NCBI GenBank assembly: GCA_010093605.1
Contig: MU004191.1
Span: forward strand, 790,816 to 854,815
Direction: 5' to 3'
DNA from: Lophium mytilinum
Taxonomy: Eukaryota
DNA: 64,000 nucleotides
Shown here: piece after piece, positions 1 to 18,634 of the stretch
Numbering within the stretch: the stretch's first letter is position 1
How the letters are laid out: every line of letters begins with the position of its first letter
Notes under the pieces: model-generated
Databases searched by the model: none
What the model was told of the DNA's origin: nothing
What the model saw: only the letters and a program-made list of their open reading frames with translations
Position numbers and translations under genes: made by a program

Positions 1-370
1 TATTAGATAGTATTATTCTTAAAATTCTTAAGTAGAAAGAAGTTTAATAGTAGTAGATAGATTATATTATATCTAATATTAAACTTCTTTATTAGCGCCT
101 ATATATATATAGCGCTCTACCTATTATTATATAGGGCGGAATTCTAAAATACTATATTTATATCTAAAGAATAGTTTAGTATTTTTAAGTATATATCTAG
201 TATAGATAATATATTAATAATAGCTACTATAGACTAATCTTTAAACTTAGTATAATAGCTCTTTAATACTTATATTATACTAGAGTAGTATAATATTATT
301 TCTCTAAGCTCTATAAAAAGCTTCTTTATATAATTATTTTAGCGCTTAAATAAGTTAAGTATACCTAAAG

Positions 371-1360
371 TATAGTTATTTATTATATATAGTAAATAGA
401 TAGATATCTTAATAATTACTTACTTACCCTTTTAGTTATAAAGAGGTTTTAAGGTTTATAGATATTATATATATAAGGTATTAAGCTAGGCTTTAGTTAT
501 ATACGCATTAATCTATAAAGCTTTTAACTTCTTTATAGTTTCTACTAGGCGCGTATTTTATATATTATAGTCTACTAATAGAGTATTATACTACTATTAT
601 AGATTATATATATTAGCTTATATACTATAGTTCTTTAATATATTATATTATTACTAGAGTATTTATTTCTTAGTCTATATACACTTATATCTCTTTATAG
701 ATCTCTAGTTTACCTTTAATATATTATCTAAAGTATTATAAAGAACTAAAATCTTCTAATAGTACTAGTTCTTAATATTAATAATATATACTTCTATAAT
801 TATAAGATTCTTAGTTAAATATAGATTTATTATAACTATTATTTTAAATTCTTTCTATAGGGAGTTATAGTTATTTATTATACGTAGTAAATAGGTAGAT
901 ATCTTAATAATTACTTACTCGCCCTCTTAGTTATAAAGGGGTTTTAAGGTTTATAGATATTATACGCGTAAGATATTAAGCTAGGCTTTAGTTATATACG
1001 CGTTAATCTATAAAGCTTTTAACTTCTTTATAGTTTCTACTAGGCGTGTATTTTATATATTATAGTCTACTAATAGAGTATTATACTACTATTATAGGTT
1101 ATATATATTAGCTTATATACTATAGTTCTTTAATATATTATATTATTACTAGAGTATCTATTTCTTAGTCTATACGCGCTTATACCTCTTTATAGATCTC
1201 TAGTTTACCTTTAATATATTATTTAAAGTATTATAGAGAACTAAGATTTTCTAATAGTACTAGTCCTTAATATTAATAATATATGTTTCTATAATTATAA
1301 GATTCTTAGTTAGATATAGGTTTATTATAACTATTATTCTAAATTCTTTCTATAGAGAGT
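371..1360. repeat. Direct tandem duplication, 2 x 495 bp, RIP-mutated
   Basis: 371-865 and 866-1360 align end to end (both start tatagttatttattata and end ttctttctatagRgagt) and differ mostly by transitions. Confidence 0.9.
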
Positions 1361-2999
1361 TATACTTATTATATAAAGTATTCTAGTTTTCTATATAAAT
1401 ATATATTATACTATTATTTAGTATATTAAGTTCTTATATTTCTATTATATACTAAATAGGTATTATATAAATCTTATAGAATATTATTAATGCTAGTAGC
1501 TAGGGCTACAGCTTCTATATAGCCTATAATTCCGGCTATACTATATATTTAAAAGCTAGAGGCTCTAGAAATTTAAAGTCTTTTACTCTCTACACCTTTA
1601 AAATCTTAGGGGCGTCTAGTTTAGCTAATTATAGTAGTCTAGCGCTAGACTTAGCTAATTTAATAGATTATAGTAGTCTAGAGGCTATACTAGAATTCTA
1701 CTATAGAAATACGCGTATATTATTTATAAGTATAGAGGGGTCTATAATTTCTATAATTATAGGGAAAGGCATCTATAGTATAGAGTTTATATAGAGTACT
1801 AATAGTATAGAGGTTAGAAAAGAAGCTATTAATATATAAATTATATAGGATATTAATAGTATAGGGGTTCTAAGTAAGAGTAGCTTAACTTAAGTTCTTA
1901 TAAATAAGCTGCTGCGCCGCTTTTAACTACTAGATAGAATTTAGTTCTTAGCTTATAGCAGCCTATTACTATACCTACTATTAAGTATATTATTCTTAAG
2001 CTTACTTTATACTATCTAGTATATAACCTATAAACACACTAGAGTTATAGAGAGTAATAGATTACTAGAAGATATATAATAGTTACTTTTAGTATAAACC
2101 TTTATAAAGGTTCTTAGTAGAGAAATCTATATATAGTACTAAAATTTACTTTATAGATGCCCTATATATATTATACTTCTATTATTTCTTTATAGTATCT
2201 AATTATGCTATACTTAGAATTTCTTTATTTAGAGCTTAGTATCTCTTAAGGTCTACTTATAAGCTATATATCGGGTTTATATTTAAAGCTAGTACTAGAT
2301 TAAATAGCTTAATTATAAGCTATTAAATACTAACTCTATAGTTTTCTTTAATAGTATTAGAAAAACTATATAATACTTCTTTATTCTCTATAGTATAGTA
2401 GTTTCTATATAGCTTACTATATCTCTATATACTATTATTATCCTTAATAAGCTAAGGGCATCCTACTAATATTCTCTATAGATATAGTTTCTTTAATCTT
2501 ATAAAATCTCTAGAATAGTTCTATATAATATAATTAATTAATATCTCGCGCGCCTTAACTAGTAATACTATCTTAACCGTAATATAGTCTAATAAATAGA
2601 TAAAATATAGTAGAAGAATATCTACTATAGGTTCTATTAATATATTATATATAGTAAATCTATATACTAAAGAGCTTATATAGGCTATTTTATAGTTTTT
2701 ATCTTTTATAGCTAGTAGAATGCGTTTATTACTATTGCCCGGCTTCTAGTATTAGAGGTAGATTATTATGCGCAGCGTTTATTATAATAGAATTATATAA
2801 GGGGTAGGTAGATAGAATTTATTATATAGATTATGCGGCGGGTATAGCACCTATAGCGCGGCCGCTTTTTATTATAGTATTATAATAAAAAGTAAGGTTA
2901 TAAAGTTATAAAAGTTTATAATAGTTATTTTTATTATTAATATTACTAGAATAATAGTAATACTAAAGTTAGAAAAGAAATATACTAAAATACTAAGAT

Positions 3000-5900
3000 A
3001 CTAAAATACTAAAAATAAACTTACTATTACTCTATACGCTACTTGCGGCGCCTTTTATAGTCTTCTATAATAAAAGGCATATTCTCTATAAGCTATATAA
3101 CTAGTTTCTCTATTTTCTTCTTATAGCCCTTCTATTAAACTATATACTTACTACCTTATAGCGTTTACTTCTATTATATAATCTTTTCTATAATCTATTT
3201 CTCTTATTCTTTAATAAGAAGTAGTAGCGGTAGTACTATATCTTTTATTAATAGGTTTAGTATAGCTTACTCTAGATATACTATACTAATTACTAGATAA
3301 ATTCTACTATAGGTTTTTAGTAGGTAAAGTTTATATGCTAGGTTATTAACCCGTCTCTTAATTTTAAAAGGTTCTACTTTAATAGTAGATAGAGCTATAC
3401 TACCTAGTAACTTAAAACTAGGTTTTATTCCGCGTACTACTTTTAGATATACTAAGCCCTTTAGGTCTAGAATTATTCTTTTTCTATTATAGTATACTAC
3501 TATTTAGGCTTATACTAGCTTAAATATATTAGCTATATCCTATTATATTAATTCCCTATTAGTAAGAAAATCTAGTAATATATTATAACTACTCTTCTTC
3601 TAGAATATCTTAGGTAGTATTCTATATAGTACTTTAAATAGCGTATTCTTTATTAAATTATTAGGCGCTATATTTAAGCTATATTCTACTATTAGTAGGG
3701 CGTTCTACTATTCTATTTTATACTTACTAATAAGTAAGTATTAAAGTATAGTTTCTACTATCTAGTTTATTTATTCTACTTAGCTATTAGCTAATAGGTA
3801 GTATAAGGTTATTATATATAAGTTTATACTATATTTAGTAAAAACTTTCTACTAGAAAGTACTTATAAACTTAGGGTTATAATTACTAATAATAGCCTTA
3901 GGTAAGCCCTATATACTATATAACCTATTAAAAAAATATTCTACCTAGACCTCTATAGAGTCTATATTAATTTCTAGAATAAGTAGTACTACTTTTAAAA
4001 ATTTATCTATTACTATTATAAGCGTATTATATTTTTATAGGGAGACTAGTAGCTCTATAATAAAGTCTATTATAAGTATATAGAATAGCCTATCTAGAGT
4101 ATATACTAGTTTTAGTTTACTATATAGACGCTTTTTACTATATTTTAATATCTAGTATACTAGGTATGCGCTAATATATTTATCTACTTATTTTCTTAGT
4201 TTTAAAATATATACTTTATAATAAAGCTTCTAGTAAGTCTATACTAGTCTAGTATAGCTATATATATTATATACGGCCCTAATAGTATTATTAACTATAG
4301 TAATAGGTAAGTATATATACTTAGATTCTCTATCTCTTATATATAGTAGGCCTTAGTTAAATAGAAAACTATAGTAGGTTACTATTTTATCTAGAAATAC
4401 TTTAATCTTATTTCTAATATATTCTAGAATTACCCTAAACGCTTAGTTCTATAGTAAGTCTTCTTATATTCTAGTTTTATATTTATTCTTTACTATTATA
4501 GTAATTATTACTTAATACTATATAAGCTAAATATTAAGCTTATTCTTTTTCTATATAGTATCTCCTTCTACTAGAAGCTATAAAAGTCTATTAGCGTTAT
4601 TATAGTATTTCCCTAGTTTATAGATAATAGTTATATTATTAAGATATATTACTAGATATATTTTCTACTTCTTTAACCTCTAGAACCTATAATTTTTACT
4701 ATCTATCTATAATACTAACTATAGGGTATTATAATTAATATACGCAGTAAACTTATTTTCTTCTAGGTAATACTATAACTTATATAAGGCCTATACTAGT
4801 ACTCTAGCTTTAAGCTCTATAGCCTAATAGTTACACTTATATTTTTTTAGTTTGCGGCTAATAAAGTATATAGGGCGCTTAACTTTCTTTATATCTATCT
4901 AGTATAGGGCGGCTCTATAACCTTATTTCTTACTACTATTAATATATAAGATAAAGTCCTTATTAAAATCTAGAATAGCTAGAATAGGCGCTATATATAG
5001 CTTATTCTTAATCTTCTACTAGGCTTAAAGATATTTCTAGAATAGATTTTCTATATACTATTTCTCTATATAGGTTTTACACGCTCTACTCTCTAGTAGG
5101 CTATCTTTTAATTCTATTATTTTTAACTTATATAATAGGCTAATAATTTTTATATACCTCTAGACGTACTATTTATACTATCTAAAAAAGGTAAGCGCGC
5201 TTTCTAGCTTCTTAAGTATTTTAGAAAATTATAGGTTCTATATAGCTTTAGTCTTTTCTATAGTTATTTCTAGGCCTAGCCTTAATATATAATATTCTAG
5301 GGCGTCTAGACTAGAGTAAGTAAAATAGTATTTTACTAATAATAGCGTTACTTCTAAATTATATAGAAGGTATAGAATCTTATCTAGATATTCTAGATAT
5401 TCTTCTAGTATTCTAGAGTATATAAGAATATTATCTATATATACTATAATAAATTTCTAGAGGTATTTTATAAATATATACTCTATATAATATTAAAAGA
5501 AACCTAGTAAGTTTACTAGTTCTATTATAGCTATAGTAAGCTACTTATATTCTCTATAAAAGATAAAACTAGTTTTCTATCTATCTACTATATATAGCCT
5601 TTACTAGAAGAAACCTTTAACTATATCTATACTAGAGAAAATTATAGTACTACTAAGTTAGTTAAAGATTTTATTCTATTTAGATAGTAGATATATATTA
5701 GGGTATAGCTTTATATTAACCTTATATAGATTAACTACTACTCTTAGCTTACTATTTCTCTATACTATAAAAGCTAGCAATACAGCTACTATAGACTATT
5801 CTAGGGGAACCTTTTTAATTTATTTTTAAGTAATAAGTAAATCTAGAATTTTATCTATAGCCTTCTTATCTTTTATAGACTATTTATACGCTTTCTACTT

Positions 5901-8900
5901 TAGGCCTAGTATATCTATCTTATCTTAAAATAGAATAGGTATTTTAATACTATTATTAAATAACTCTAAAGGGCTATTAAATAACCTAAAATATTTAGAA
6001 AGAAGCTTTAGTATAGAGTTCTTATATTTCTTACTAAAGTATTCTAAGATATCTATATTTTTTATCTTAGGGGTCTCTTTCTAAAGGTTTAGTATAAATA
6101 GAATTAGGGGTTTACTATACTTATTATATACTTTTACCGCGAATACTAATATAAAATTAATATTTGCCTAGAATAATCCCTTTATCTTTTCCTTCTTAAA
6201 TCTTAATAGGTATCTAAGCTATCTACCTTTATAGAGTATAAGTAGTTACTCTCTAAAGTTTATAAATAGAATAGGACTATTAGTATCTAGTAGTATAGCT
6301 TATATACTATATCTATATATACTATAGGCCTTATCTATAAAATCTTAATAGGGAATAAATAGATATAGGCTAATATTCTTTTATTAGGCTTATATAGGTA
6401 AATTAAGGCTATAGCCTAGTTAGATAGTAATATCCTCTATTAAGAATACTCTTATTACTACTATTCTTAGTTTCTTTATTACTAGTAGCGTGCGCGCTAT
6501 TACTTTAATTAGAATTACTATCTCCCTTTTATATAGCTAATCTAGTCTCTTTTTATCCGCCTATATAATATTTAACCTAGCTAGTTAAAGTATATTAATA
6601 CCTAGTAGTAGGCCTATATTAAGGTTTAAAATAATATATACCTTAACTTTAATATTAACTAGTTCTTCTATACTAGAGAGGAAATATACTATAATATTTA
6701 TATACTATTTTATACTAACTAATTTTAAGCTAATTCTAGTTATAATAACCTTCTTTTTTTAATTTTTAATTTTTTTATGCGGGTAGTATTACTTAAGAAA
6801 AGTTTAGTCTATAAGTATAATTATAGAGCCTATATCTAGATTTACTCTAAATATTAATGCACCCTCTATAGGTGCTATAGCTAAGACTTTTATATTAATA
6901 TACTATAAGAACCCCTTACTAGACTTAATTTATTTACTAATTTTAATATAGTAGGTATATACTAAGATAGCTATACCCTCTATAACTAATAGGAATTTTA
7001 AGCTGTCCGGGGGTTTTATATCTAGTAGGTTGTAACCCGGTATTAATAATCCTCTTTCTTATTTTCTAAGAAGGAGGAGGAGGAGAAGTTATCTATAAGC
7101 TATTTAATATTATTAAGCGTGCTAGAGAAAGTATTAAAGTTATTATTATTATCTTTATATTTATCTACTTCTATCTTATAGGCTTTTATATTATCCCGGC
7201 TTACCTTATTCTAATTTAGGTATAGGCTTTACTAGTAGAATTTAGCTAGCTTTTCTAAAGCTTTATAGTACCTATAGGGCCTTTAGAGTTTACGCTTCTA
7301 GTACTTATTATTCTTATTATTTAAGCCTTTTATATTCTTAATACTAACTTTCTTACTATTATTTTCCCTAGTATCTAGTTTTATAGCGTATAGTCTATTT
7401 TATCTATTTTACTATAATAAATCTAACTAGTCCCCTAGTCTTCTATTAGTTTTTTCTAGTAGTATTTATATATAGTCTATAGCTAGAAATTATTCTATAT
7501 CCTTTACTAGCTTATTTATAATATACTATATCTATTCTACTACTAGAAGTTACTATTATACGCGTCTCTAGAAGTCTTATATAGTATCTCTAACTTTATA
7601 TACTATAACTATATTTATTAATACTAGTTTAAGGCCTTTCTATATATTATATATAATATTATATTTATCTATTATACTAGTATTATATAGAAGGTTAACT
7701 TTCTAAGTTATATACTCTAATAGTAATAGCTATTCTACCTTAAAAAACTAGAATTTTAACTTTCTAGCCTTTTTACGGGTAATATACCGCGGCATGCAGT
7801 ATTCTTAGATTAATTAGTCTTTCTAGTGCGCGAGGCTTTTATTTATTAGCTCTCTTATTATAGTAGATAAAGCTATATACTAGTCTACTACTATTTCTTA
7901 TAGATATAGTAGTAGTATAATTAAGACTTACTATTTACTAAATACTTATATAATTTATTTAAAGCGTTAAATAAAGGTTTCTATAGTTCTTTTATTAGGG
8001 TTCTAGAGTATTATATCTACTAGGTATAGCTTATATAGAGGTGTCTATATCTATTATAGATATATTATATTCTCTATATCTACTAATTATATCTAGTATT
8101 AGTTTTTTAGAGGTTTTTATAGATTTTCTAATAATACTTCTTATAATAGCCTTTATAGTTATATATATTTCTCTACTTTATCTTTCTATTAACTAAGATA
8201 CTATACTATATAATAATTATACTATACTAGGTTCTTATATATATTCTAATATCCGCGTTCTTATATACGCTGTTTATTTATCTAGAGGTACCTCTTATTA
8301 GGGGGGTATTTATTCTAGAAATATTATACTTTAGGCTGCGGGCATTATTTATTTATTTAAAGGCGTTATTTATTCTTAATAATCTTAAGTCTATTAAGAA
8401 TATTCTATATTATATTTAGTATAGTAGAATTTAGTATAGTAGAGTTTAGTATAGTAGGGTTTAGTATAGTAGGGTTTAGTATAGTAGAGTTTAGTATAGT
8501 AGAGTTTAGGTTTTTATTTAGTAGAGGGTGTATTCTAAGAAAGTCTATATTTTTATCTCTATTATCTACTTCTAGTACTTTATAAAAGTCTATAAGTAAG
8601 GCTCTCTATATAGTAAGTTTTAGATCTTTAAGTAGATACTATAGATTTTCTAGTTCTACTTATATAGCTACCTTCTAAAGATATTTTTTTTTTCTACTTC
8701 TATTAATAGATTAATACCTTATATAGTACTATAGTTTATATCTATAATTAGTATAAATACTATAGGCTAGTTAAAGTATTACTATACTACCTTCTAGATA
8801 AGTATAGCATTATCTTAGTACTTAGTCTTTAAATATCTAAGGCCTATCTACTATTAGTAGTAGGTTTAAATTAATTTCTAGCGGAGGGGGTTAATTATTA

Positions 8901-9983
8901 GTCCCTTCTAGTCCTTATATATTAGTAGTAGTAGGCTTTTAGAGGGCTTCTCTAAGAAAGAAGTATATAAAACTACCTTTCTACTTACTTAAAATATATA
9001 AGCCTAGCGTAACCTTTATAAAACTATACTATATTTCTATAGATTATCTATTAATAGCTATATCTAGTCTATATTAAAATTAATATCTAGCTCTAGAGCT
9101 ATATAAATACTATTTATAAGTATATATACTATTTTAGCTAGCTCTATATTATTTATTTTCTACTTATCTAGTACTATTAGGTTTTTATTATCTAGAGGGT
9201 ACTCTTATAGGATAATTTTAATAATCTAGAAAAGCTTATTATTATTAATATCTTTATTATTACTTCTACTTTATTATTACTCTTATTCTACTATAATACT
9301 ATATATATTTACTATTATATCTATAGAGAGCTATATAAGAAAATTAAAAAATAGAGAAAAAGATTAAGAAGCTACTATTATATATAATAATATATCCTAG
9401 TTTATTTTATTAGTAAGTATCTACTAGCTTTAAACTTTAAAGTACCTTAGTTAAGATACTTAGCTAAGGTACTAGAATAGTAGTAGAATATATATAAGTA
9501 GCTTTAACTTACTATAATAGTTATAGTAGGCGTATAAATAGTTTCTAGAGTTTTAAGACTACTATAGTAGGCCTATATAATAAAAAGAGGCTAAAGAAAT
9601 CTAGGTTTTTAATAACTTTAGTAAGTAAATAGTACTTACTAACTATATAAGCTATTAGAGAAAAGAGAAAGTTTACTAGATAGAGTAGATAGGTAGTTAG
9701 TAATCTCTAGGTTTTTAAAATATAGCTTAGCTACTAACTATTATATATAAGTAGTAGGTATATATTATATATATAATATATAAATTAGAATATTAATTAA
9801 TTAAGTAATAATACTAGCTACTAGAAAGAGAAAGAATTATAGAAGCTCTATAGCTTCTACCTCTATATTAAAGTAGTACGCTTCTAATAGCTACTATAGT
9901 TAATAATAAGCACCTATATAGCCCTACTACTAAGCTAGTAGATATTAATAATAAGAAGTTATAATTATTTAGGATTAACTACA
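3000..9983 (-). mobile_element. Ty3/Gypsy LTR retrotransposon relic (gag-pol, probably chromovirus), inactivated by RIP; ends approximate
   Basis: Minus-strand translation gives mutated motifs in Gypsy order: protease LDIGS (~6820-6840); RT FSSIDIVKGFF (~5605-5640), LTIAIIELVNLLGFF (~5495-5535) and YIDNILIYS (~5415-5445, a YxDD motif after G>A); integrase IIDFIIEL (~4050-4075) and PKFISTF (~3850-3880); chromodomain-like IEKII...KGY (~3120-3200). A possible outer LTR end (TGT on the minus strand) lies at ~9983; no matching second LTR was recognised. Confidence 0.85.
8415..8510. repeat. 15-bp minisatellite (tttagtatagtagRR) x ~6
   Basis: Tandem units directly visible. Confidence 0.85.
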
Positions 9984-10769
9984 TATATATGAAAATAGAA
10001 GCAAGAAAAGATAGAAATATTAAACTTTTAATACGTGAGGTTCACGACGGTTAGACTTATAAGTTCGCGCAGCTTAAGCACCCCGGCCAACTACCTCATA
10101 GCCTTGCTCACCGCAGCGCAAGGATACCTACGTAAACTGGCACCCCATCGCTCTCAATCTGCACTCATCCCCGGGATCTTTCGTCGATCAATTGCCGCGC
10201 TTGCTCGAGTACTGGACGGCTGCGGACTGGTCCCCTTGCAAGGCAGAGCTGGCGTGCCTGAAATAGACTAAGTTTGTGAGATGCGGAACGGATTCGGGGG
10301 CCGATCTATCGGAATGCCGAATTAAGAAGAGATTCTCCCTGCGCGATCAGTGCGTGGCTGTCGATCCTAGGGCTGTGGGGATCGCGGCGCAGTTGGCGAG
10401 GCTGACGGTCTGCGGTTAGTGTTGTGTGATGTCACTGTCGGGCCGAAGCTTGAGAGCACAAGAGAGACTTCAGTTCTTGGAACTTTGAGCACGAGTCGGG
10501 GTGATGATGACATTTACGCGCTGCATTGACTATGAGGAGGATCAGAGACGTGGAAAAGATCCAATTCGGGCGGAGAGGTGACGAGATTCGGATTGGCCCA
10601 GGACGAAGAAGCTTTCGTCAAGCATCTAGGAAGTCGAATAAATTCTGGTGTACCAGGACCTTGATATCGATCACGCTGGCAAAAGGATAGAGGAAGAGGG
10701 TTGAAATCGGGTCCACAGTTTTAGGATCGAGAGGCGGCTCCGAGGTATCTTGGTGGACACTTTGCCCTC

Positions 10770-11125
10770 TTTAGTTGCTTTAAGTTACAGATCTAACCGC
10801 GCAAGTTATTTTTAATAGAGCATTACTTACCTTTTGGACGAGCCTCTAAATCGCGCCCGAGGAATCAGGCTTGGATAAAGTCGCTGGGGTGACTCTATAG
10901 AGAGATTACCTTTGTTAGTTACAAGAAGTCACAGATCCAACCGCGCAAGTCATTTTTAACAGGCCCGGAGGGTACGCGGTGTCTACATATCATAGTCGCA
11001 TTTCTTACCTTTTGCACGACCCTCTAAATTGCGCCCATGGATTTAGGCTCGAAAGAGGTCGCTGGGGTGCGTCCGTGGAGAGATTGCCTCCGTCAGTTAC
11101 AAGAAGTCACAGATTGAACCGCGGG
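10770..11125. repeat. Degenerate non-coding tandem repeat, ~145-180-bp units (2 full + 1 partial)
   Basis: The motif agtYacagatYYaaccgcg recurs at ~10783, ~10927 and ~11106. The blocks cttacctttt...ctctaaat...cgccc...gtcgctggggtg...gagagatt are shared between units. Confidence 0.75.
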
Positions 11126-11545
11126 AGACCATTATTTAGGAGACGCGGAGGGTAGGCTCAGGGAAGTGTTTAGTGCGGGAGGGGCTCAGTTGGGCCGCGG
11201 ATTCGAGGTTGATCTTGGTGTGGCAAGATGTATAAAGGGGAGCCAATCCGTGCAATTTGAACGCGATTTTGGTATGTTATTGCTGTGCACTGTATATCAA
11301 GCCTTGGGATTGGGGGGCACTCACGGAAAGCTTACCTCCATTAGTCACAAAGAGTCACTTTTCTGACCGTGTAATTCTTTTTTCGGTAGACGAAGAGGAT
11401 ACCCAAGGGCTACGCAGGGCTAGTTATTTAGATCAAAGGTTTTATGTCATGACGTTTCGTTCCAAAAAGTAGTAAAGAGTCCAAGAACTAAAGAAGAAAA
11501 CCTATCTTATACAGCAGTAACTTTTCATTACCCCCTTACCCCTTC

Positions 11546-11890
11546 TCACTCACCCTTAACAAACTCTTCCGTCAATCGTACATACTTAATCCGCTGCCTC
11601 CAAAACGTATACGCCACATGCACCGTCCCATCCTCCTCCACCGCTATACTTGGATAACTAATCTCCCGATTCAGCTTCTCCGCCGAGTTATTCGTTAAAC
11701 AAAACCCATCCCCATCCTCCAATATTTTCGTCTCCCACGTCCTCCCCAAATCTCCACTGACACTCACCGTCAACGCCTTCCGCGGCGCACCCCAGAACGC
11801 CTCCTTCGCCACCGTCGCTGGCTGGTTCACCCGCGTATCCTCAGCCGGCGTAATATCATCATACAACCCCTCTCGGCGTGGCATGCCCGA
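11546..11890 (-). pseudogene. 3' fragment of a BNR/Asp-box (sialidase/neuraminidase-like) gene, 5' part missing
   Basis: 112 aa with the Asp-box SGDLGRTW, E-I-S-Y-P-S-I and VHVAYTFWRQRIKY, typical of the C-terminus of fungal BNR_2 beta-propeller proteins. An in-frame TGA lies three codons upstream of the Met, and no N-terminal part was seen in the window. Confidence 0.8.
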
Positions 11891-12067
11891 TCAAAGCCTT
11901 TCGCTCGGCTCCTATTCCGAGCCTTCTGTTCGACTTCCCCCAAACACATTCGGGCTTCCTCTTCACTCGAACCATCAAGACGGCTCCGTACCGTCAGTGA
12001 CCAGTCCTTTGCTAAGTCTCACACATAACTAGTTGCTCGGCATCTCGTCCTCGTCGTGGAACGAAGA

Positions 12068-14347
12068 ATGGCGCCAACGGTCCTCGACCAACACACCTTC
12101 GCAGGTGATACGGCGTTCTGGGAACAGGTCCGCGATGGGTTCATCCCCACTCTGCCGGGCAACACGGGTCCAATCCGTGCAGGATACGGATACAAAGCTA
12201 TCAGGTTCTGGAAGAACGAAAAGGACGGCGTGGTGATATTCCCAGAGACAACGCAGGGCCAGATCATCGAGCTTGGCAAGGATTCAAGATACGTCAAGGT
12301 TCATCTACCCGATCTGGGAAAGAATGGATGGGTCCCGCGTGATCGCATCGTGTGTGGGACCGTCCCATGGGGAAACTGGAAGATCAAAGCGGACCTAGTT
12401 ACGCCTGGGACCATCAAGGTTCCACGGGTACCAGGCATGCCCAGCACGAGTTCTCGAGTCTACAAAGCCATCAGCACATTCCTAGCGACACTTGCTGTGT
12501 CTAGGACATCGCTACTTTTCGAGAAGTTCTACGAACTCGTTGGTACGAATGGGGAGAAGATTGCCTCGCTCACTAACCTCGTGGTTGAAGGAATCAAGAA
12601 AGCGAGCTTGTTTGACGTGCTCAACACGCCTGATTTCACAGTCAAAGATTTGGTTGACAACAGCCGCTATCCGGATGCCTCCAAAGCGCCAACTACAATT
12701 GCCGGAATATATTTTCGGGCAATCAAAGATGCCAACGACGAAGACCACTTCTATATTGGGCATACCAATAACCTTCCTTCGCGTGCACAAGGGTACAAGA
12801 CCGATACGAACAATCCGAAGGGGAAGGGTTATCACATGGATTTGTCAGCAAAAGCCAAAAAGATTGCGATGTGTGCGCTCTGCATTCTCCCTCAGGATGT
12901 CGACACTGGCATTCGATATCTTGTCGAACAGATCTTCGTATGTCTATTTGAAACCTATCGACCCACTTTATTCAGAATCTCTGCCGGCTACATCAGCGCT
13001 CGATTGCTTGCCGACGACCCTGGCAGGATCGTCCAATTCCAATATGCTGTGTATCTCACTAGGATCGCAGAGATTGCCGCTGCCGATAGCGGTTGGAAGG
13101 GTGCAGTAACGAGACCTGGGTTTGGGGCTACTCAAGGCGTCAATTGGCTGTCGCCTCTGTACGAGATGACGACAGGCCAAACGCACGAAAGGGTGTTATT
13201 CATCCGGTCGGACGGGACAGTTCAGGACCCTACTTCGAAGGAGCTCATTCCTGTTGCGAATTTCCGAAGAGCAAATGCGAGGTCTACTAATTGGCACGCA
13301 GCATCATCTGCAACTACTAGCAACAGTCAGGTCTTCATCATCTCAGAAATCGGCGATACCAAAATCAGTAACCCGCATACTACTGAAGCCAATGCCGCCG
13401 CCAGCTCTAGCGGGACCGACTGGCCCATCCAAAATCAGCCGTTCCATGTTGTGTACGAAGTGCGCAAGGACTGGAAATTGCATCCATATCCTTGGGCTCG
13501 CGTACCATCTATTGGCCCCTTCATGGACTGGGAGCGTGCGAACAGCTTGGGAGTGCGCCTGGAATGGCAAGACGCGAAGAAGCAGTGGCGACGTAGGTAC
13601 CTTCAAGTTGGATCCAAATCCCATCACGCTCTCGACGACAAATCACCCGGGTCTCTGAAGGCCTATTCAGATGGCATGACCATCATCCACTTCCTGTTTC
13701 GAGAGGATCGAAACGATCATCGAGGTTGGGTAACCGACGCAGGCTTTGCCAGAGTCAAGCGGGTTAGAATGGACTGCATATCTCAGACCATCCAGTTCCT
13801 AGATCTCACTGATGTGCTCAAGCCCGCTGTCAGTATTCAGCGTAAGCCTGCTTCCATCATCAAACAGCAAATGGAGGATGATAGCTTGGAACTCGAACAC
13901 GTTGGCGGAGTTGTCGGGGGCATGGATGAAGGTGGTAGGACTTACAAGAGGACACTCTGCGACACCTGCGTGTTGTTCGGAAAAAGAGGTTCACAGAAGG
14001 GGTGCAACCAGGCTGAAGGCACGAACAGCAAGGTCTGCAGTCTCTGTTATTTTACCTACGGCAGGCCATTTTGCTCTTTCACAGCGGGCGTCATGAGACA
14101 ATCAAGTTTGCATAAAACTCCAGCGCTCGAAGCTATCAACCGTAAGCGTGTAAGCGCACTGACCCAGCTGGAGTGGGAAGTTGATGCTGAATTGGGCGGC
14201 GATCCGGATCTGCAGAAGCTCGAGATCGAGGTCGAGGAGTTGGAAGAATATGATGCAGCGATAGCGGAAGCGCTGGCAGAGGCGGAGAGGGAAGAAGAGG
14301 CTGTTGAGGAGGCTGGAATATATGAGAATCCGATCACTGGAGCCTGA
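12068..14347 (+). CDS. Orphan multidomain protein: SH3-like N-terminus, GIY-YIG nuclease-like domain, C-terminal Cys6 cluster, acidic tail
   Basis: Uninterrupted ORF (first ATG 12068; an upstream exon is possible via AG at 12032). Motifs: GWVP; GIY-x13-YIG...R...E...GVN (12704-13144); C-x2-C-x11-C-x10-C-x2-C-x8-C (13958-14074). Confidence 0.75.
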   Translation: MAPTVLDQHTFAGDTAFWEQVRDGFIPTLPGNTGPIRAGYGYKAIRFWKNEKDGVVIFPETTQGQIIELGKDSRYVKVHLPDLGKNGWVPRDRIVCGTVPWGNWKIKADLVTPGTIKVPRVPGMPSTSSRVYKAISTFLATLAVSRTSLLFEKFYELVGTNGEKIASLTNLVVEGIKKASLFDVLNTPDFTVKDLVDNSRYPDASKAPTTIAGIYFRAIKDANDEDHFYIGHTNNLPSRAQGYKTDTNNPKGKGYHMDLSAKAKKIAMCALCILPQDVDTGIRYLVEQIFVCLFETYRPTLFRISAGYISARLLADDPGRIVQFQYAVYLTRIAEIAAADSGWKGAVTRPGFGATQGVNWLSPLYEMTTGQTHERVLFIRSDGTVQDPTSKELIPVANFRRANARSTNWHAASSATTSNSQVFIISEIGDTKISNPHTTEANAAASSSGTDWPIQNQPFHVVYEVRKDWKLHPYPWARVPSIGPFMDWERANSLGVRLEWQDAKKQWRRRYLQVGSKSHHALDDKSPGSLKAYSDGMTIIHFLFREDRNDHRGWVTDAGFARVKRVRMDCISQTIQFLDLTDVLKPAVSIQRKPASIIKQQMEDDSLELEHVGGVVGGMDEGGRTYKRTLCDTCVLFGKRGSQKGCNQAEGTNSKVCSLCYFTYGRPFCSFTAGVMRQSSLHKTPALEAINRKRVSALTQLEWEVDAELGGDPDLQKLEIEVEELEEYDAAIAEALAEAEREEEAVEEAGIYENPITGA

Positions 14348-14770
14348 ACTCAGGTAAATTCCTCTACCTTTTGCGTTGATCAGAGGGAACATGCGGATGG
14401 AAGGAATGGGGTCCTTCTACGATATCTGCGGTTTTCTTTTCTTGGTTCTGACTTGGTCTCAACACCATTATTGAGGGGTTTCCTCTTTTTTTTCCATCTT
14501 TAGAGGCCTGTGAGCTGGGAATTTTCGACATGCGGTAAATCAAGCCCCATGTTTGAGCTGAATAGCAGTTCAACACTGCTCTTTCTTAGATAGGCCCTTA
14601 TTGATAGGGTTCACGAACAATCTCCAAATATGCCACACTTCAGGTTTTAGAACATACGTTAGGTACCCCACACAATGGCAGAGGACTACTAACTGCGGGC
14701 TACGGCCTCAAGAAGCTTTGACTCGTAGATCCTCATGTCGATCTATCTAAACTATAGACTCGGCATCCTC

Positions 14771-15146
14771 CTCCGCACCTACACCGTCGATTCGTGTAGC
14801 TCTATACAGCTTAGAATTGCAGTTATTCAGACCCTTCACTGACTCCCCCACACGGGGCAAGGCATACTCCGCTCTTCTTTCCAAGAAACATGTTGAGGCT
14901 TGAACAATCTGGAGAATATCTCTTGGCGGTTTGCTGTGGCTTCGGCTTGCACAGCGAAGCACACGGACTTCCCGCCGGTGTGTAGCATCGTGGGACGATC
15001 TTGGTCTGATATGCGGGGAGGAGTCGGGGTAGTAAAGCTGGGGAAGGACTAGTGGGGTTAGTGTGCCCTGTTGCCGAGTGACAATTTATCTGGAAAACTG
15101 CAGCCGACAAGATGCACGCTGTAAGCGATTAGTTGCATATAAAAGC
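14771..15146 (+). promoter_or_regulatory. Transporter promoter with clustered CreA/Cre1-type SYGGRG sites and a TATA-like box
   Basis: SYGGRG on either strand at 14771, 14846, 14867, 14909, 15013, 15038 and 15052; TATAAAA at ~15139. Confidence 0.5.
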
Positions 15147-15305
15147 CCCATAATATCCATCCTGGCTCACCAGGCAGTATTTTCTCAACCTCAAGTGTCT
15201 TGTTCTTGCTCGTCTCCTCCATCTGTACTTACGATTTGCATTTTTTCTGCCATATTATCTCTTACCTCCCTTATCGTCGGGTAACCCGTCGCAACATCTG
15301 CCAAA

Positions 15306-17170
15306 ATGGGTGGTGGAACCTCATTGTGGGCGTCTCCCGATTACAAAAGAGATCCAAAGGAGATCTTCAACCCGAAGATATTCTATCTGGCTATTACTAT
15401 CGCTTTTGCCGGTTGCTCCTATGGTTTCGATCGTAAGCTCCCCCGGTGCGTCTACAACAGTATGCGCGCCTGCTAATGATTTCCAGAGGGAAACATTGGT
15501 GGTGTTCTCACGCTCGAAAGCTTCAAACATGCCTTCGGGCTTGATAAGCTGAGCAAAGATGCCGCAGATCAGCGGGCTGGAAATATTGCAGCGATGATGG
15601 CTGCTGGAGGATCTGGAGGCGCACTGCTTGCGGCCCCATGTTCCGATTACCTGGGCCGTAAATACAGTATGATGCTGTTCGGTGCTTTCTACCTCATCGG
15701 CTGCACGATGCAGGAGTTCGCAGACCTTGGAGGTACGCAAAACCGCCCTCAATGATGACTACTGGTAGGACTTCGCTGACATGCAGATACAGTCTTCTGC
15801 GCCGGCCGCTTGATCGCTGGCATTGCCATCGGAGGCATGAGTATGCTGGCCCCTCAATACCTCGCCGAGAACTCGCCGAAGTCGATTCGTGGATCCGTGA
15901 CATGCTTGTACAATCTGTGCATCATCCTAGCTCTATCTCTTGCATTCTGGGTATGTCGAAAAATATTAGCCATGCGTAGGACAATGAGACTAACACGCAC
16001 AGGTTAACTACGGTGTCAGCAAATGGGTCCGCGAAGCCATGGATACATGGAACCTCCAATGGAAACTGGCCCTCGGTATCCAGATCATCCCAGGCGGTTT
16101 CATGTTCCTCATGATGCCGTGGGTAGTGGAGACACCTCGTGCGCTGATTGCACGAGGCAAAAGAGAGCTCGGGCTGAAGAACTTACTCATTCTGCGAAAC
16201 CTCCCAGAGGAGCACCCGTATGTTCAGCAAGAGTACCTCGAAATCTGCGCGCAGGTCGACCATGAGCAAGAGGCGACAAAAGGTAAGCATTAGTTCCCAG
16301 TCCTTCTAGTTTCCAATCTAATCACGAATAGGCCGTAATTACTGGATCGTCATCAAAGACATCGTCGGCGTCCGAAGCAACACTCGCCGATTCTTTCTCG
16401 CTACTACGCTCTTCTTATTCCACAAATTCACCGGCACCGACTCGCTCAACTACTTCGCCCCCGAAATCTTCACCATGATAGGAGTAAAAGGCGGCTCGCA
16501 AGCCCTTCTAACCACCGGAGTCTACGGCCTCGTGAAGCTAGCAACAACGGTTGTCTACGTCGCTTTCATCGTGGACCGAGTTGGGCGCCGCCTTCCACTC
16601 ATCATCGGGGCAATCTTGCAAGCCACTTCCATGCTGTACATCGCCCTCTATGTCCGCTTTGGAAATCCTGACTCTGCAAAGGGTACCGAAGCCGGCGGCA
16701 TCGTTGGTATCATCTGGATCTACATCTACGCCTTTGGTTGGTCTTTCGGGTGGTCCGTGGCGCCCTACGTCGTGGCCGCTGAGATTTTCCCATCCCGCAT
16801 CCGCTCCGTCTCTATGTCTTTCTGCTTCTTCATTAACTGGATCGTCGACTACGGCATCACAAAGGCGACGCCTAGTATGATGACACATATGGGCTGGGGA
16901 ACATTCCTGCTCTACGCCATCTTGACGTATGTCGGTGCGGTGTTTGTGTTCTTCTGCATGCCGGAGTTGAAGGGGAGGAGTATTGAGTCGATGGATGATT
17001 TGTTCGAGCACTCGATTTGGACCATGTACAAGCGTGCTTATCCGACCGAGGAGGAGAAGGTCAGGCACGATGTCCCGGATCTTGTGCACGCGGATATGAT
17101 GGAGAAAGAAGAAGGCTTGGATAAGAATGGTGGACAGGTTCAGATTGAGAATGTCCAGAGCGAGAGATGA
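15306..17170 (+). CDS. MFS sugar porter (quinate/sugar-acid permease-like), multi-exon
   Basis: Spliced translation MGGGTSLW...FAGCSYGFD, SDYLGRK, AENSPKSIRG, VETPR, VDRVGRR, AEIFPSRIR and PELKGRSIE (Sugar_tr signatures); GT-AG introns with branch sites. Confidence 0.92.
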
Positions 17171-17496
17171 TGAAGACGGAGAGGCGAGATCGAGGTACTG
17201 AGAATTGATGTGCATATGATGAGTTTCCATAAGACGAACAGCCCCACTCGATAGTACATAGCGATGTCTGAACGTGTAATGAAATCTGACGTATGACTAT
17301 CCATGGCTTTGAGGACTCCGGGAAGTGTCCGTGCGTAAAGGGCCGTGTTTGGAGATGGTGAAAATGGTCCGGCGTTCTCGCCGGGTAGAAGGGCGTTATT
17401 GAAGATGAAATGCATAAATATTAGAAACCTATATGGTCTCCTATTACCACAAATCTAATATCATCCTAAACCCGAAAGCTCTAAACATTCTTCATT

Positions 17497-18634
17497 ATGG
17501 TTGCCACGATGAAGCTGAATACTGGAGCCGAAATCCCCGTAGTAGTGAGTGTTAAAATCAACCATTAGAGCTTTAGCATCTGATAATCTGGCTAGGGATT
17601 TGGTACATGGCAAGCGGCCCCTGGGGGTTAGCAATTCATGATTTGTAAAGACGTCCCCCTACTAACACCGACGTAGAGGCTGGACGGGCTGTGAAGATTG
17701 CCATAAAATCTGGCTATAAACACCTTGTAAGTTTCATAATTAGTCCCGATGCCCTCCAGAGCGTTAATTGACCATGATGTAGGACTGTGCTCCACTGTGT
17801 AAGTAGCAGTTCGATCCAGCGAACCTGGCCAAGAGTTTCAAAAATCTGACCCATCCAGACTGGAACGAGAAAGAGATCGGAGAATCCCTAGCAGAGACGC
17901 TCAAGGAGACATTGATACCACGCTCTGAGCTCTTCATAACCACAAAAGTGTGGTCCTCACAACACTCCCAAGTCGAAGCCTCACTCCGCCGCTCACTAGC
18001 GGACCTCCAACTCGATTATGTCGACCTGTATCTCATGCACTGGCCCATCTCCCTACCGCCCAACGACGCCACCGCCGCGAACTTCGGGAAAGAGGACCGG
18101 ACGACCCATGCCTCGGACTGGGACTTCACGAATACCTGGGCCGATATGGAGAAGCTCCTGGCTACCGGCTTAACAAAAGCAATCGGCGTCGCCAACTTCT
18201 CGACTGTGAACCTCGAGAAGCTCCTAAAGACAGCAAAGGTGGTCCCGGCTGTCAACCAGACAGAACTTCACCCGCTGCTACCTCAGGACAAGCTCAATGC
18301 GTATTGTCAAAGCCACGGTATCCATCAGACCGCGTTCGGACCCCTCGGGGGCAAGGGTAGCACGCTGCATAGCCACCCGGTTGTGCGGGAGATCGCAGAG
18401 AAGAGGAAGGGCAGCGCAGCGCAGGTGATGCTGTCGTGGGGCGTGGCGAGGGGGTGGAGTGTTATTCCGAAGAGCGTGACGGAGGAGCGGATTAAGAGCA
18501 ATCTAGCGATCTTCGAGCTGAGCGCGGAGGAGGTTGGGAAGCTGGACCAGCTGGCGAAGACGGAGGGGAGGAGGTTCAATAGGCCGAATTGGGGGACGAC
18601 GGTATTCCATGATGATGATGAGAGTGTTGCGTAG
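17497..18634 (+). CDS. Aldo-keto reductase (AKR1/GCY-YPR-like), several short 5' exons
   Basis: Spliced MKLNTGAEIPVV|GFGTWQ...GYKHL|DCAPL|YWNEKEIG, then LFITTKVW, DYVDLYLMHWP, AIGVANF, VNQTELHP and VIPKSV. Confidence 0.92.

Follow-up and report, generated by a model that had tools for sequence, protein, structure and literature searches.

A gene of Lophium mytilinum, located at 12068..14347 in a stretch of 64,000 nucleotides from contig MU004191.1 (assembly GCA_010093605.1, positions 790,816 to 854,815; hereafter the window), is predicted to encode an intact, probably active, modular GIY-YIG endonuclease from an undescribed family of the Pezizomycotina. We assign this molecular reading a probability of about 0.7. 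Judged from sequence profiles, the catalytic core is a GIY-YIG domain of the I-TevI type, in which the residues Tyr, Tyr, Arg, His/Tyr, His and Glu are conserved at I-TevI-like spacing. The core is joined to an N-terminal SH3 domain, a conserved middle domain and a C-terminal six-cysteine module, a new architecture in the GIY-YIG superfamily, and the family that carries it is large, fast-evolving and undescribed. The behaviour of the family suggests a conflict-type or dispensable role.

The defining features of GIY-YIG domains are the GIY and YIG motifs, an Arg midway along the domain and a Glu towards its C-terminal end, with the GIY box N-terminal in a domain of about 100 amino acids (PMC1564403). 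An initial annotation of the window, made from the letters alone, had proposed a GIY-YIG nuclease with an SH3-like N terminus and a cysteine cluster, and all of the motifs it listed are present where it had placed them: GIY-x13-YIG (amino acids 213-231, nucleotides 12704-12760), LPSRAQGY containing R239 (12773-12796), YLVEQIF containing E287 (12917-12937), QGVNWLSPLYE containing N359 (13133-13165), GWVP (amino acids 87-90, nucleotides 12326-12337) and C-x2-C-x11-C-x10-C-x2-C-x8-C (amino acids 631-669, nucleotides 13958-14074). In Pfam searches of the protein and its relatives, GIY-YIG is the sole family that recurs across members, with E <= 0.01 in 7 and E <= 1 in 18 of 32 members, and E <= 0.05 in 14 of the 31 relatives.

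Profile-profile comparison places the core close to that of I-TevI. An I-TevI-like profile was assembled from I-TevI and ten diverse phage homologues of its catalytic domain (11 sequences), and the family segment covering amino acids 205-375 (100 rows) aligned with it in hhalign over 85 columns (Prob 96.2, P 2.5e-9). The match persisted when only eight distant phage sequences were used as the template (P 7.7e-10), and against I-TevI alone it comprised 22 columns (YVG..R...H) at P 0.0014. As controls, the SH3, linker, middle and cysteine segments of the family gave P values of 0.3-0.98 against the I-TevI-like profile, shuffling the template columns (20 versions) yielded P values no better than 0.051, and reversing the template 0.033. 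Furthermore, when a 110-row family profile was searched against the PDB, the only matches among the best 60 that were not SH3 chains were phage T4 EndoII (E 0.028) and I-TevI (E 0.27). The hhalign alignment pairs GIY with GIY and YIG with YVG, and then R239 with Arg27, position 243 with His31, H256 with His40 and E287 with Glu75, as counted on the I-TevI sequence. In I-TevI, Arg27, His31, His40 and Glu75 are catalytic residues.

The same positions are strongly conserved in an alignment of 150 representatives, where each count refers to the rows that cover the position. E287 is found in every row (130/130) and N359 in 132/134, while Y215 (120/121), Y229 (116/123), G231 (123/124) and R239 (118/125) are nearly as constant; of the 118 rows in which all five positions are covered, 105 hold the full set Y-Y-R-E-N. 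Spacing is conserved as well, since the Gly-to-Arg distance equals 8 in 99/118 rows and the Arg-to-Glu distance in the window protein equals 48, both as in I-TevI. The core proposed in the initial annotation is therefore borne out by catalytic conservation across the family and by the alignment with the I-TevI-like profile.

The family itself was collected by an exhaustive HMMER search over 1.84 billion cluster representatives, which returned 416 at E <= 1e-3, 236 at E <= 1e-10 and 70 at E <= 1e-30. No relative exceeds 35% identity; the best one, P0002 (766 amino acids), is 33% identical and colinear with residues 7-736 of the query, whose own 90% cluster holds one member from one contig. Organism names were available for 8 of the 30 clusters looked up, seven Dothideomycetes and one Eurotiomycetes (Paraphoma, Alternaria in two separate clusters, Curvularia, Lasiodiplodia, Phyllosticta, Rhizodiscina and Cyphellophora). 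All eight are Pezizomycotina and are described as hypothetical or uncharacterised, although one UniRef entry for the Phyllosticta member is titled 'Zn(2)-C6 fungal-type domain-containing protein'. Among 32 full-length members, the invariant columns are Y215, G231, C272, E287, N359, C631, D632, C634, C646, C657, C660 and C669. Scans of these 32 members against NCBIfam and PHROGs found no recurrent family, and twelve longer relatives contain no further domain. No relatives occurred among 121 pattern matches in viral contigs, and a tblastn search of 50,697 phage records with amino acids 195-381 gave no match.

A full-text literature search found no description of a nuclear fungal family combining SH3, GIY-YIG and a cysteine module, in line with the view of the initial annotation that the architecture is uncharacterised; the papers returned dealt with mitochondrial homing endonucleases, Penelope elements or Slx1-type enzymes, or were unrelated. 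Similarly, no such family appears in the Background, section 6 part 1 or Table 1 of the 2006 work that classified the GIY-YIG superfamily (PMC1564403).

The family profile identifies the N-terminal part as a genuine SH3 domain, which strengthens the SH3-like label it had been given. The PDB search with the 110-row profile yielded 94 sequences at E <= 10, and 58 of the best 60 are SH3 chains by name. The best of these is p47phox (7yxw, E 0.0011, profile positions 24-81); chains of Tks5, ABL, kalirin, Fyn, GRB2, spectrin and other proteins are also among them, all on profile positions ~24-86. In Pfam, SH3_2 scores above its cut-off of 21.8 in the relatives P0036 (22.4) and P0088 (25.4); the window sequence alone gave no SH3 match in either the Pfam or the PDB search. 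The middle domain is marked by E464 (141/145 rows), H472 (138/147) and W500 (134/144) and has no Pfam, PDB or informative Atlas match.

The six cysteines of the C-terminal module are invariant in alignment A1 and present in 96-124 of 102-127 rows in alignment A2, and as a conserved module the cysteine cluster of the initial annotation stands. Its label as a zinc cluster of the Zn2Cys6 class does not. Canonical Zn2Cys6 spacing, as the initial annotation gave it, has six residues between the second and third cysteines; in the family, this gap ranges from 6 to 28 residues, with 6 in only 2/86 members and 11 in the window protein. Given this gap, the C-terminal position of the module and the fact that Zn_clus (PF00172) was never matched in any Pfam search of the family, we rejected a Gal4-type Zn2Cys6 cluster. 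The closest candidate is DUF3716 (PF12511), which matched four of seven C-terminal segments over model positions 5-58 of 59 (E 0.016-0.13, 12.7-15.5 bits, cut-off 22) and a longer segment of the window protein at E 0.22. A feature search of the Atlas, which is built on a protein language model, with amino acids 440-690 ranked DUF3716 clusters first (scores 0.89 and 0.87); these are leads only, and the clusters are small proteins of about 150 amino acids without a nuclease.

DUF3716 itself is present in two genes (REP9-1 and REP9-2) of a Zymoseptoria class II transposon (PMC8232023) and in Fusarium graminearum PSC58, which has been called orthologous to Neurospora crassa NCU05718 (PMC10776026). 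Recombinant NCU05718, as a whole protein, bound double-stranded TTAGGG repeats directly (PMC4650311). By analogy, NCU05718 offers an indirect hint that the six-cysteine module may bind DNA, and we take the module to be presumably both zinc- and DNA-binding.

The open reading frame (ORF) that encodes these modules is intact. It comprises 759 codons counted from the first ATG, within a frame that is open from 12029, while in shuffles of the stretch that preserve its dinucleotides (n = 500), the longest ORF reached 143 codons on average and 311 at most. The ORF is also intronless, as the initial annotation had stated for a protein of about 760 residues: relatives are colinear with it, and P0002 spans query residues 7-736 unbroken. 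The protein ends in an acidic tail, another feature of that annotation, with 22 Asp/Glu against 2 Lys/Arg in the final 59 residues; such tails are seen in many relatives in the alignment of 32 full-length members. The ORF carries no signature of repeat-induced point mutation (RIP), because its TpA/ApT index is 0.54 and its (CpA+TpG)/(ApC+GpT) index 1.33, and leakage of RIP into the ORF was dropped as a possibility on these normal values. Codon usage appears native (correlation of relative synonymous codon usage with the other window genes 0.71), and the GC content at third codon positions is 0.574, the other window genes ranging from 0.48 to 0.72. A recent horizontal transfer was discarded on account of the native codon usage.

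Members of the family diverge deeply. In a quick maximum-likelihood tree of 34 members, the median terminal branch measures 0.9 substitutions per site, and the window protein stands alone on a branch of 1.06. Two lineages of Alternaria section Infectoriae fall into separate subclades and therefore represent paralogues or separate acquisitions. A metagenome scan with the subfamily alignment A4 found 15 loci, at which intact copies are single intron-free ORFs (L005, L006, equal to L013, L007, and L009, equal to L010). Others are decayed: the copy of L004 (192-kb contig) carries a frameshift and is missing its first 291 residues; L008, though 94% identical to the intact L010, is interrupted by a stop at codon 323; and L014 retains the first 121 residues only. 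The ratio of nonsynonymous to synonymous substitution rates (dN/dS, Nei-Gojobori) is 0.41 and 0.40 for pairs of intact copies and 0.74 for a pair that includes a broken copy. The genes beside L004 and L010 are ordinary ones, encoding a mitochondrial carrier, FtsJ, a TFIIIC subunit and a TCP-1 chaperonin, with no transposase; L004 and L010 share no neighbour family with each other, and their neighbours also differ from those of the window. As far as these loci go, the gene does not behave as a syntenic housekeeping orthologue, the alternative that the initial annotation had raised. None of the metagenome loci has an AT-rich block.

Several loci differ in their immediate flanks. The genes of L006 and L007 are 99% identical over 2142 nt, and about 290 bp directly upstream of the ATG are replaced by unrelated sequence; L007 has GTG as its start where others have ATG. 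L006 carries upstream of the gene a 571-nt segment that L005 carries in inverted orientation on the downstream side. The differences among L005, L006 and L007 stem either from local rearrangements next to the gene or from metagenome contigs that are chimeric. A stretch downstream of the gene measures about 1.1 kb in L008 (2556-3651) against 72 bp in L010 (9328-9400).

A number of results weigh against the reading of the protein as an active modular nuclease. Pfam PF01541 matches the window protein at only E 0.041 and 14.6 bits, below its cut-off of 22.6, and no relative reaches that cut-off either (best 22.4 bits). However, in phage T4 (loci L016-L025), used as a control, two matches located at genes annotated as Seg endonucleases reach 21.4 and 20.3 bits; because these also fall under the cut-off, sub-threshold scores do not exclude membership. 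An hhalign comparison with a poor seven-sequence alignment of T4 Seg and I-Tev proteins was not significant (P 0.35) and has been superseded by the 11-sequence profile. Position 243 is His in 103/126 rows and Tyr in 17, the window protein among the latter. The Asn of motif E has no aligned counterpart: I-TevI 'GYN' falls on a family 'TYR' stretch rather than on N359, which lies 59-157 residues after the Glu across the family, the Asn of I-TevI lying 15 after, and the G-x-N of the N359 segment pairs with GYN at a non-significant P of 0.61. The proposal in the initial annotation that the Asn of GVN completes the catalytic motif is thus unsupported. The motif-E Asn is itself not universal, being absent in Slx1 (PMC1564403). 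In the C-terminal module, every DUF3716 match is below threshold, and the DNA binding of NCU05718 has not been mapped to DUF3716 itself. Finally, a dN/dS of 0.4 together with decayed copies would suit a weakly constrained ordinary gene equally well as a conflict gene.

The T4 scores are a useful calibration for divergent superfamily members in general, and on T4 EndoII the Pfam GIY-YIG model matches over model positions 3-42 only. The GIY-YIG fold has a sheet of three strands with helices at its sides. The Atlas model of the window protein is poor (predicted local distance difference test 0.47), and of its ten structure rows five are GIY-YIG clusters, all with template modelling scores <= 0.26 by query, which serves as a lead only. 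The features of the gene and its surroundings are collected in Table 1.

Table 1 Predicted modules of the nuclease gene and adjoining features of the window.
Feature	Position	Strand	Basis
Intact intronless ORF, 759 amino acids (P0001)	12068..14347, stop included	+	Shuffles, RIP indices, colinear relatives
SH3 domain, ~aa 39-95, including G64 and GWVP 87-90	12182..12352	+	Family profile against PDB; Pfam SH3_2 in relatives
GIY-YIG catalytic core, ~aa 211-298: G213-I-Y215, Y229-I-G231, R239, Y243, H256, E287	12698..12961	+	hhalign
Conserved post-core extension, aa 340-370: G345, R349, G357, N359, P363, E366	13085..13177	+	Near-invariant columns
Conserved middle domain, ~aa 450-600: P453, E464, H472, W500, G528	13415..13867	+	Column conservation
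Six-cysteine module, DUF3716-like: C631, C634, C646, C657, C660, C669, T672	13958..14083	+	Invariant Cys, sub-threshold Pfam
Acidic C-terminal tail, 59 aa	14168..14344	+	Residue count
Truncated GH33/BNR_2 sialidase-like gene, last ~112 codons	11546..11890	-	Pfam, relatives
AT-rich RIP-mutated block bordering the GC island with the nuclease gene	1..10020	.	GC, RIP indices

As the initial annotation had noted, the gene has a strongly RIPed block 2 kb away. The block is AT-rich (GC 0.21-0.26 over 1-10000), and its indices of 1.66 (TpA/ApT) and 0.07 ((CpA+TpG)/(ApC+GpT)) contrast with those of the ORF. RIP strikes duplicated sequence during the sexual cycle. Because a gene of 2.3 kb has stayed unmutated beside this heavily RIPed block, it probably had no similar second copy during sexual cycles. 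In the window, there is one family copy: 159 family proteins produced 163 tblastn hits, all inside the ORF. The remaining window genes are ordinary core genes, encoding a sugar transporter, aldo-keto reductases, RPB1, a TFIID subunit and lipin, and no transposase or recombinase was found among 25 window ORFs or 22 ORFs beside relatives.

On the side of the RIPed block, the nearest gene is truncated, as had been proposed from the letters. What remains codes for the final ~112 residues of a sialidase-like protein (BNR_2/GH33) whose full length is ~383-393 amino acids; it matches Pfam PF13088 at model positions 232-277 of 277 (E 7.2e-8) and has 400 relatives among 503 candidates, the best of them 74% identical. 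Five full-length relatives align to the window through their residues ~271-393 only (one further stray match, E 0.056), and for this reason we consider the gene truncated. Its cut end is 178 bp from the ATG of the nuclease gene. The first ~270 codons were not found anywhere in the 64-kb window. Since the missing part does not lie on the other side of the ORF, the nuclease gene is not a simple insertion into the BNR gene. The junction is present in a second public data set: contigs of run X3, from another study, are identical to the window, one bridging the junction of BNR fragment and ORF start (11795-12100), another joining the 3' end of the ORF to the transporter gene. Run X3 is guessed to be RNA, but a contig that is colinear over the neighbouring transporter gene (14065-18000) has no joint there and so does not speak to transcription. 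The run may derive from the same strain.

No direct or inverted repeats flank the ORF apart from one imperfect 15-nt inverted pair (93% complementary) at 9997-10011, exactly the AT/GC boundary, and 14435-14449, 88 bp past the stop. The pair encloses a 4.4-kb island with repeats, the BNR fragment and the nuclease gene; it is probably due to chance, as by our own estimate ~0.7 such pairs are expected in a region of this size. Tandem Repeats Finder reported no tandem repeats in 10000-15500, there is no hammerhead or other Rfam match in 9500-15500, and the window contains no tRNA genes.

Other repeats occur nearby. The intergenic part of the GC island that separates the RIPed block from the BNR fragment (10756-11400) contains degenerate direct repeats, with two 126-nt units (10820 and 10998, 81% identity) and three 57-nt units (10762, 10906 and 11084). 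Several other contigs of the same assembly run hold short pieces of this part (10756-10807 and 11210-11270) with 3-6 differences, depth is higher there, and these repeats are probably a dispersed short repeat family. Downstream of the ORF, 121 nt at 14692-14812 have a second copy with 10 differences on another contig of run X1, a small dispersed repeat. The RIPed block contains a 300-nt direct repeat (371-670 and 866-1165, 95% identity, spacing 495 nt). In run X4, an air metagenome, short low-depth contigs match within 11613-17734. Pieces of the ORF differ at 4/232, 15/179 (plus a 3-nt in-frame deletion) and 1/163 positions, and pieces of the BNR fragment and the transporter gene by ~9-10% (22/225, 15/172, 22/209 and 23/230). 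Several organisms may be mixed here, and the data are too sparse to read the gene as more conserved than its flanks.

Our estimates for the different readings are separate and do not form a partition, and two of the alternatives concern biological role. One holds that this is a free-standing homing-type or selfish nuclease gene whose arrival truncated the BNR gene, which spreads by cutting empty alleles or by drive, and which escapes RIP by keeping to one copy per genome. The closest counterparts of the catalytic core are found in phage and organelle homing endonucleases, the gene and all intact relatives examined are intronless, and the deep paralogues, the three decayed metagenome copies and the lack of any relative above 35% identity resemble the pattern of invasion and decay that homing genes should leave; the upstream swap of 290 bp between L006 and L007 and the inverted 571-bp flank of L005 relative to L006 could be further traces of mobility. 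At the locus, however, nothing found speaks for such an arrival, which we regard as unlikely, except position: the gene is at the border of a RIPed block, and 178 bp separate its ATG from a truncated gene. The missing 270 BNR codons leave no room for an insertion that split the gene into two halves, there are no terminal repeats or duplications at the ORF, codon usage is native, neither an empty-site allele nor a second context of the gene was seen, and viral contigs and phages yielded no relatives; the rearrangements of the relatives come from short metagenome contigs, possibly chimeric. In a stronger version, the whole family would be free-standing, nuclear, gene-drive-like homing endonucleases of filamentous ascomycetes. 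Through rapidly evolving middle and cysteine modules, those of each lineage would find a target of their own, cut empty alleles in a dikaryotic or meiotic stage and be copied into them, escaping RIP by keeping to one copy per haploid genome, and the window copy would have damaged the BNR gene on such an arrival. This version seems to us decidedly improbable. The broader suggestion of the initial annotation, a mobile gene, toxin- or driver-like element or defence effector, fares unevenly. The long branches, paralogues, decayed copies and dN/dS of about 0.4 fit a conflict or selfish gene; mobility of this copy is unproven, as it is single in the window, native in codon usage, free of flanking repeats and not a simple insertion.

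On the other hand, the protein could be a cellular nuclease, domesticated or ancestral, with a host role, for instance in repair, recombination or the processing of telomeres or chromatin, into whose networks the SH3 domain would wire it. This, too, is doubtful. The native composition, the single copy in the window and the neighbourhood of core genes agree with it, as do the retention of catalytic residues in 105/118 rows and a dN/dS below 1, and SH3 is a typical eukaryotic protein-interaction module. Telomeric repeats are bound by a protein that has been called the counterpart of a DUF3716 protein by orthology (PMC4650311, PMC10776026), and Slx1 sets a precedent for GIY-YIG with a C-terminal zinc module in eukaryotic repair (PMC1564403). 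Yet the best relative is 33% identical among 1.84 billion representatives, where the BNR fragment has relatives at 60-74%, decay and paralogy are frequent, and neighbours vary between loci. A catalytically dead GIY-YIG-like scaffold that acts solely in DNA binding or transcriptional regulation through its cysteine module is very improbable: the Zn(2)-C6 title of the Phyllosticta member in one source and the Tyr at position 243, where His is usual, are set against E287 in 130/130 rows, Tyr, Tyr and Arg in 94-99%, and the failure of Zn_clus ever to match. Such conservation is hard to explain without catalysis. As for descent from a Penelope-like retroelement or a DNA transposon with a GIY-YIG domain, of which the gene would be a remnant, Penelope-like elements are known eukaryotic nuclear mobile elements with GIY-YIG (PMC1564403, PMC13159263) and DUF3716 genes occur in the Zymoseptoria class II transposon (PMC8232023), but this reading is effectively refuted by the lack of any reverse transcriptase or transposase domain in the protein, its 31 relatives or the 12 long relatives, of hammerhead or other Rfam matches in 9500-15500, of terminal repeats and of a transposase beside relatives.

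Under the favoured reading of an active modular nuclease, the C-terminal cysteine module, perhaps together with the middle domain, would bind DNA, and the tethered GIY-YIG domain would nick or cut nearby through the one-metal chemistry of its superfamily. I-TevI is built from a catalytic domain, a linker and a separate DNA-binding domain, and the layout of the window protein, with its catalytic domain linked to a separate, presumed DNA-binding part, would be alike. The SH3 domain may recruit or gate the enzyme through a proline-rich partner, and the acidic tail may mask the DNA-binding surface. In biological terms, the protein would be a nuclease that is dispensable and lineage-specific, of the sort seen in genetic conflict, be it selfish, defence or allorecognition, and not a housekeeping enzyme of repair. 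Here, the gene would be a resident single-copy gene of its genome and not an actively multiplying element; its single occurrence in the window, the absence of a RIP signature beside a RIPed block, native codon usage and core-gene neighbours all point to resident status.

Eukaryotic nuclear GIY-YIG domains are known mainly from Slx1, ANKLE1-type proteins and the Penelope endonuclease (PMC1564403). The family described here adds hundreds of divergent fungal clusters in which a homing-endonuclease-type core is combined with SH3 and a fungal cysteine module. If active, its members would provide a first functional handle on the DUF3716-like module and the conserved middle domain, a candidate natural source of modular nucleases, and a means of testing whether the nuclei of RIP-competent fungi host active homing-like or conflict nucleases. 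Even an ordinary, weakly constrained nuclease would represent an unannotated domain architecture that annotation pipelines now call 'hypothetical'.

Among known systems, DNA transposons and Starship cargo are marked by terminal repeats, a target-site duplication and a transposase or captain gene; the window gene has no terminal repeats beyond the chance-size 15-nt pair and no transposase or recombinase. Penelope-like elements, whose reverse transcriptase is N-terminal to the GIY-YIG domain and which carry hammerhead motifs, resemble it in having such a domain in a eukaryotic nucleus, one akin to the homing-endonuclease cluster (PMC1564403), but the window protein has no reverse transcriptase (no RVT family) and no hammerhead motifs. 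Like Gal4-type Zn2Cys6 proteins, it is a fungal protein with six cysteines arranged as CxxC...C...CxxC...C, whereas its module is C-terminal instead of N-terminal and its gap between the second and third cysteines is 11, within a family range of 6-28. The DUF3716 proteins (Zymoseptoria REP9-1/-2 and PSC58/NCU05718) are likewise all fungal and are recurrently matched by the six-cysteine module below threshold over most of the 59-position model; all of these matches are under 22 bits, and the DUF3716 clusters in the Atlas are proteins of ~150 amino acids without a nuclease.

Slx1, a structure-specific nuclease of eukaryotes, likewise has a nuclear GIY-YIG domain with a Cys-rich module C-terminal to it, a zinc module in Slx1 and presumably so here; the canonical Asn is absent in Slx1 (PMC1564403). 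However, the module of Slx1 is a RING finger and its family is eukaryote-wide (PMC1564403), while Pfam searches of the window family found no RING or PHD family. The window family further differs in its extra SH3 and middle domains, its many divergent paralogues and its decayed copies, and its PDB profile searches match I-TevI and EndoII, not Slx1. I-TevI-type enzymes differ in other respects: the window gene is nuclear and fungal, 759 amino acids long in its product and outside any intron, and orthodox GIY-YIG homing endonucleases carry C-terminal NUMOD or helix-turn-helix (HTH) DNA-binding modules (PMC1564403), whereas no NUMOD or HTH family was found in the window protein or 31 relatives. 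The window protein also adds SH3, the middle domain and the six-cysteine module, and it lacks an aligned motif-E Asn, with an insertion of 59-157 residues before the G-x-N of the family. What the two share is the core itself, aligned at P 2.5e-9 with an Arg 8 after the Gly, a His/Tyr 4 further on, a second His and a Glu at +48 all in register. They also share the placement of the catalytic domain N-terminal to a separate, presumably DNA-binding part.

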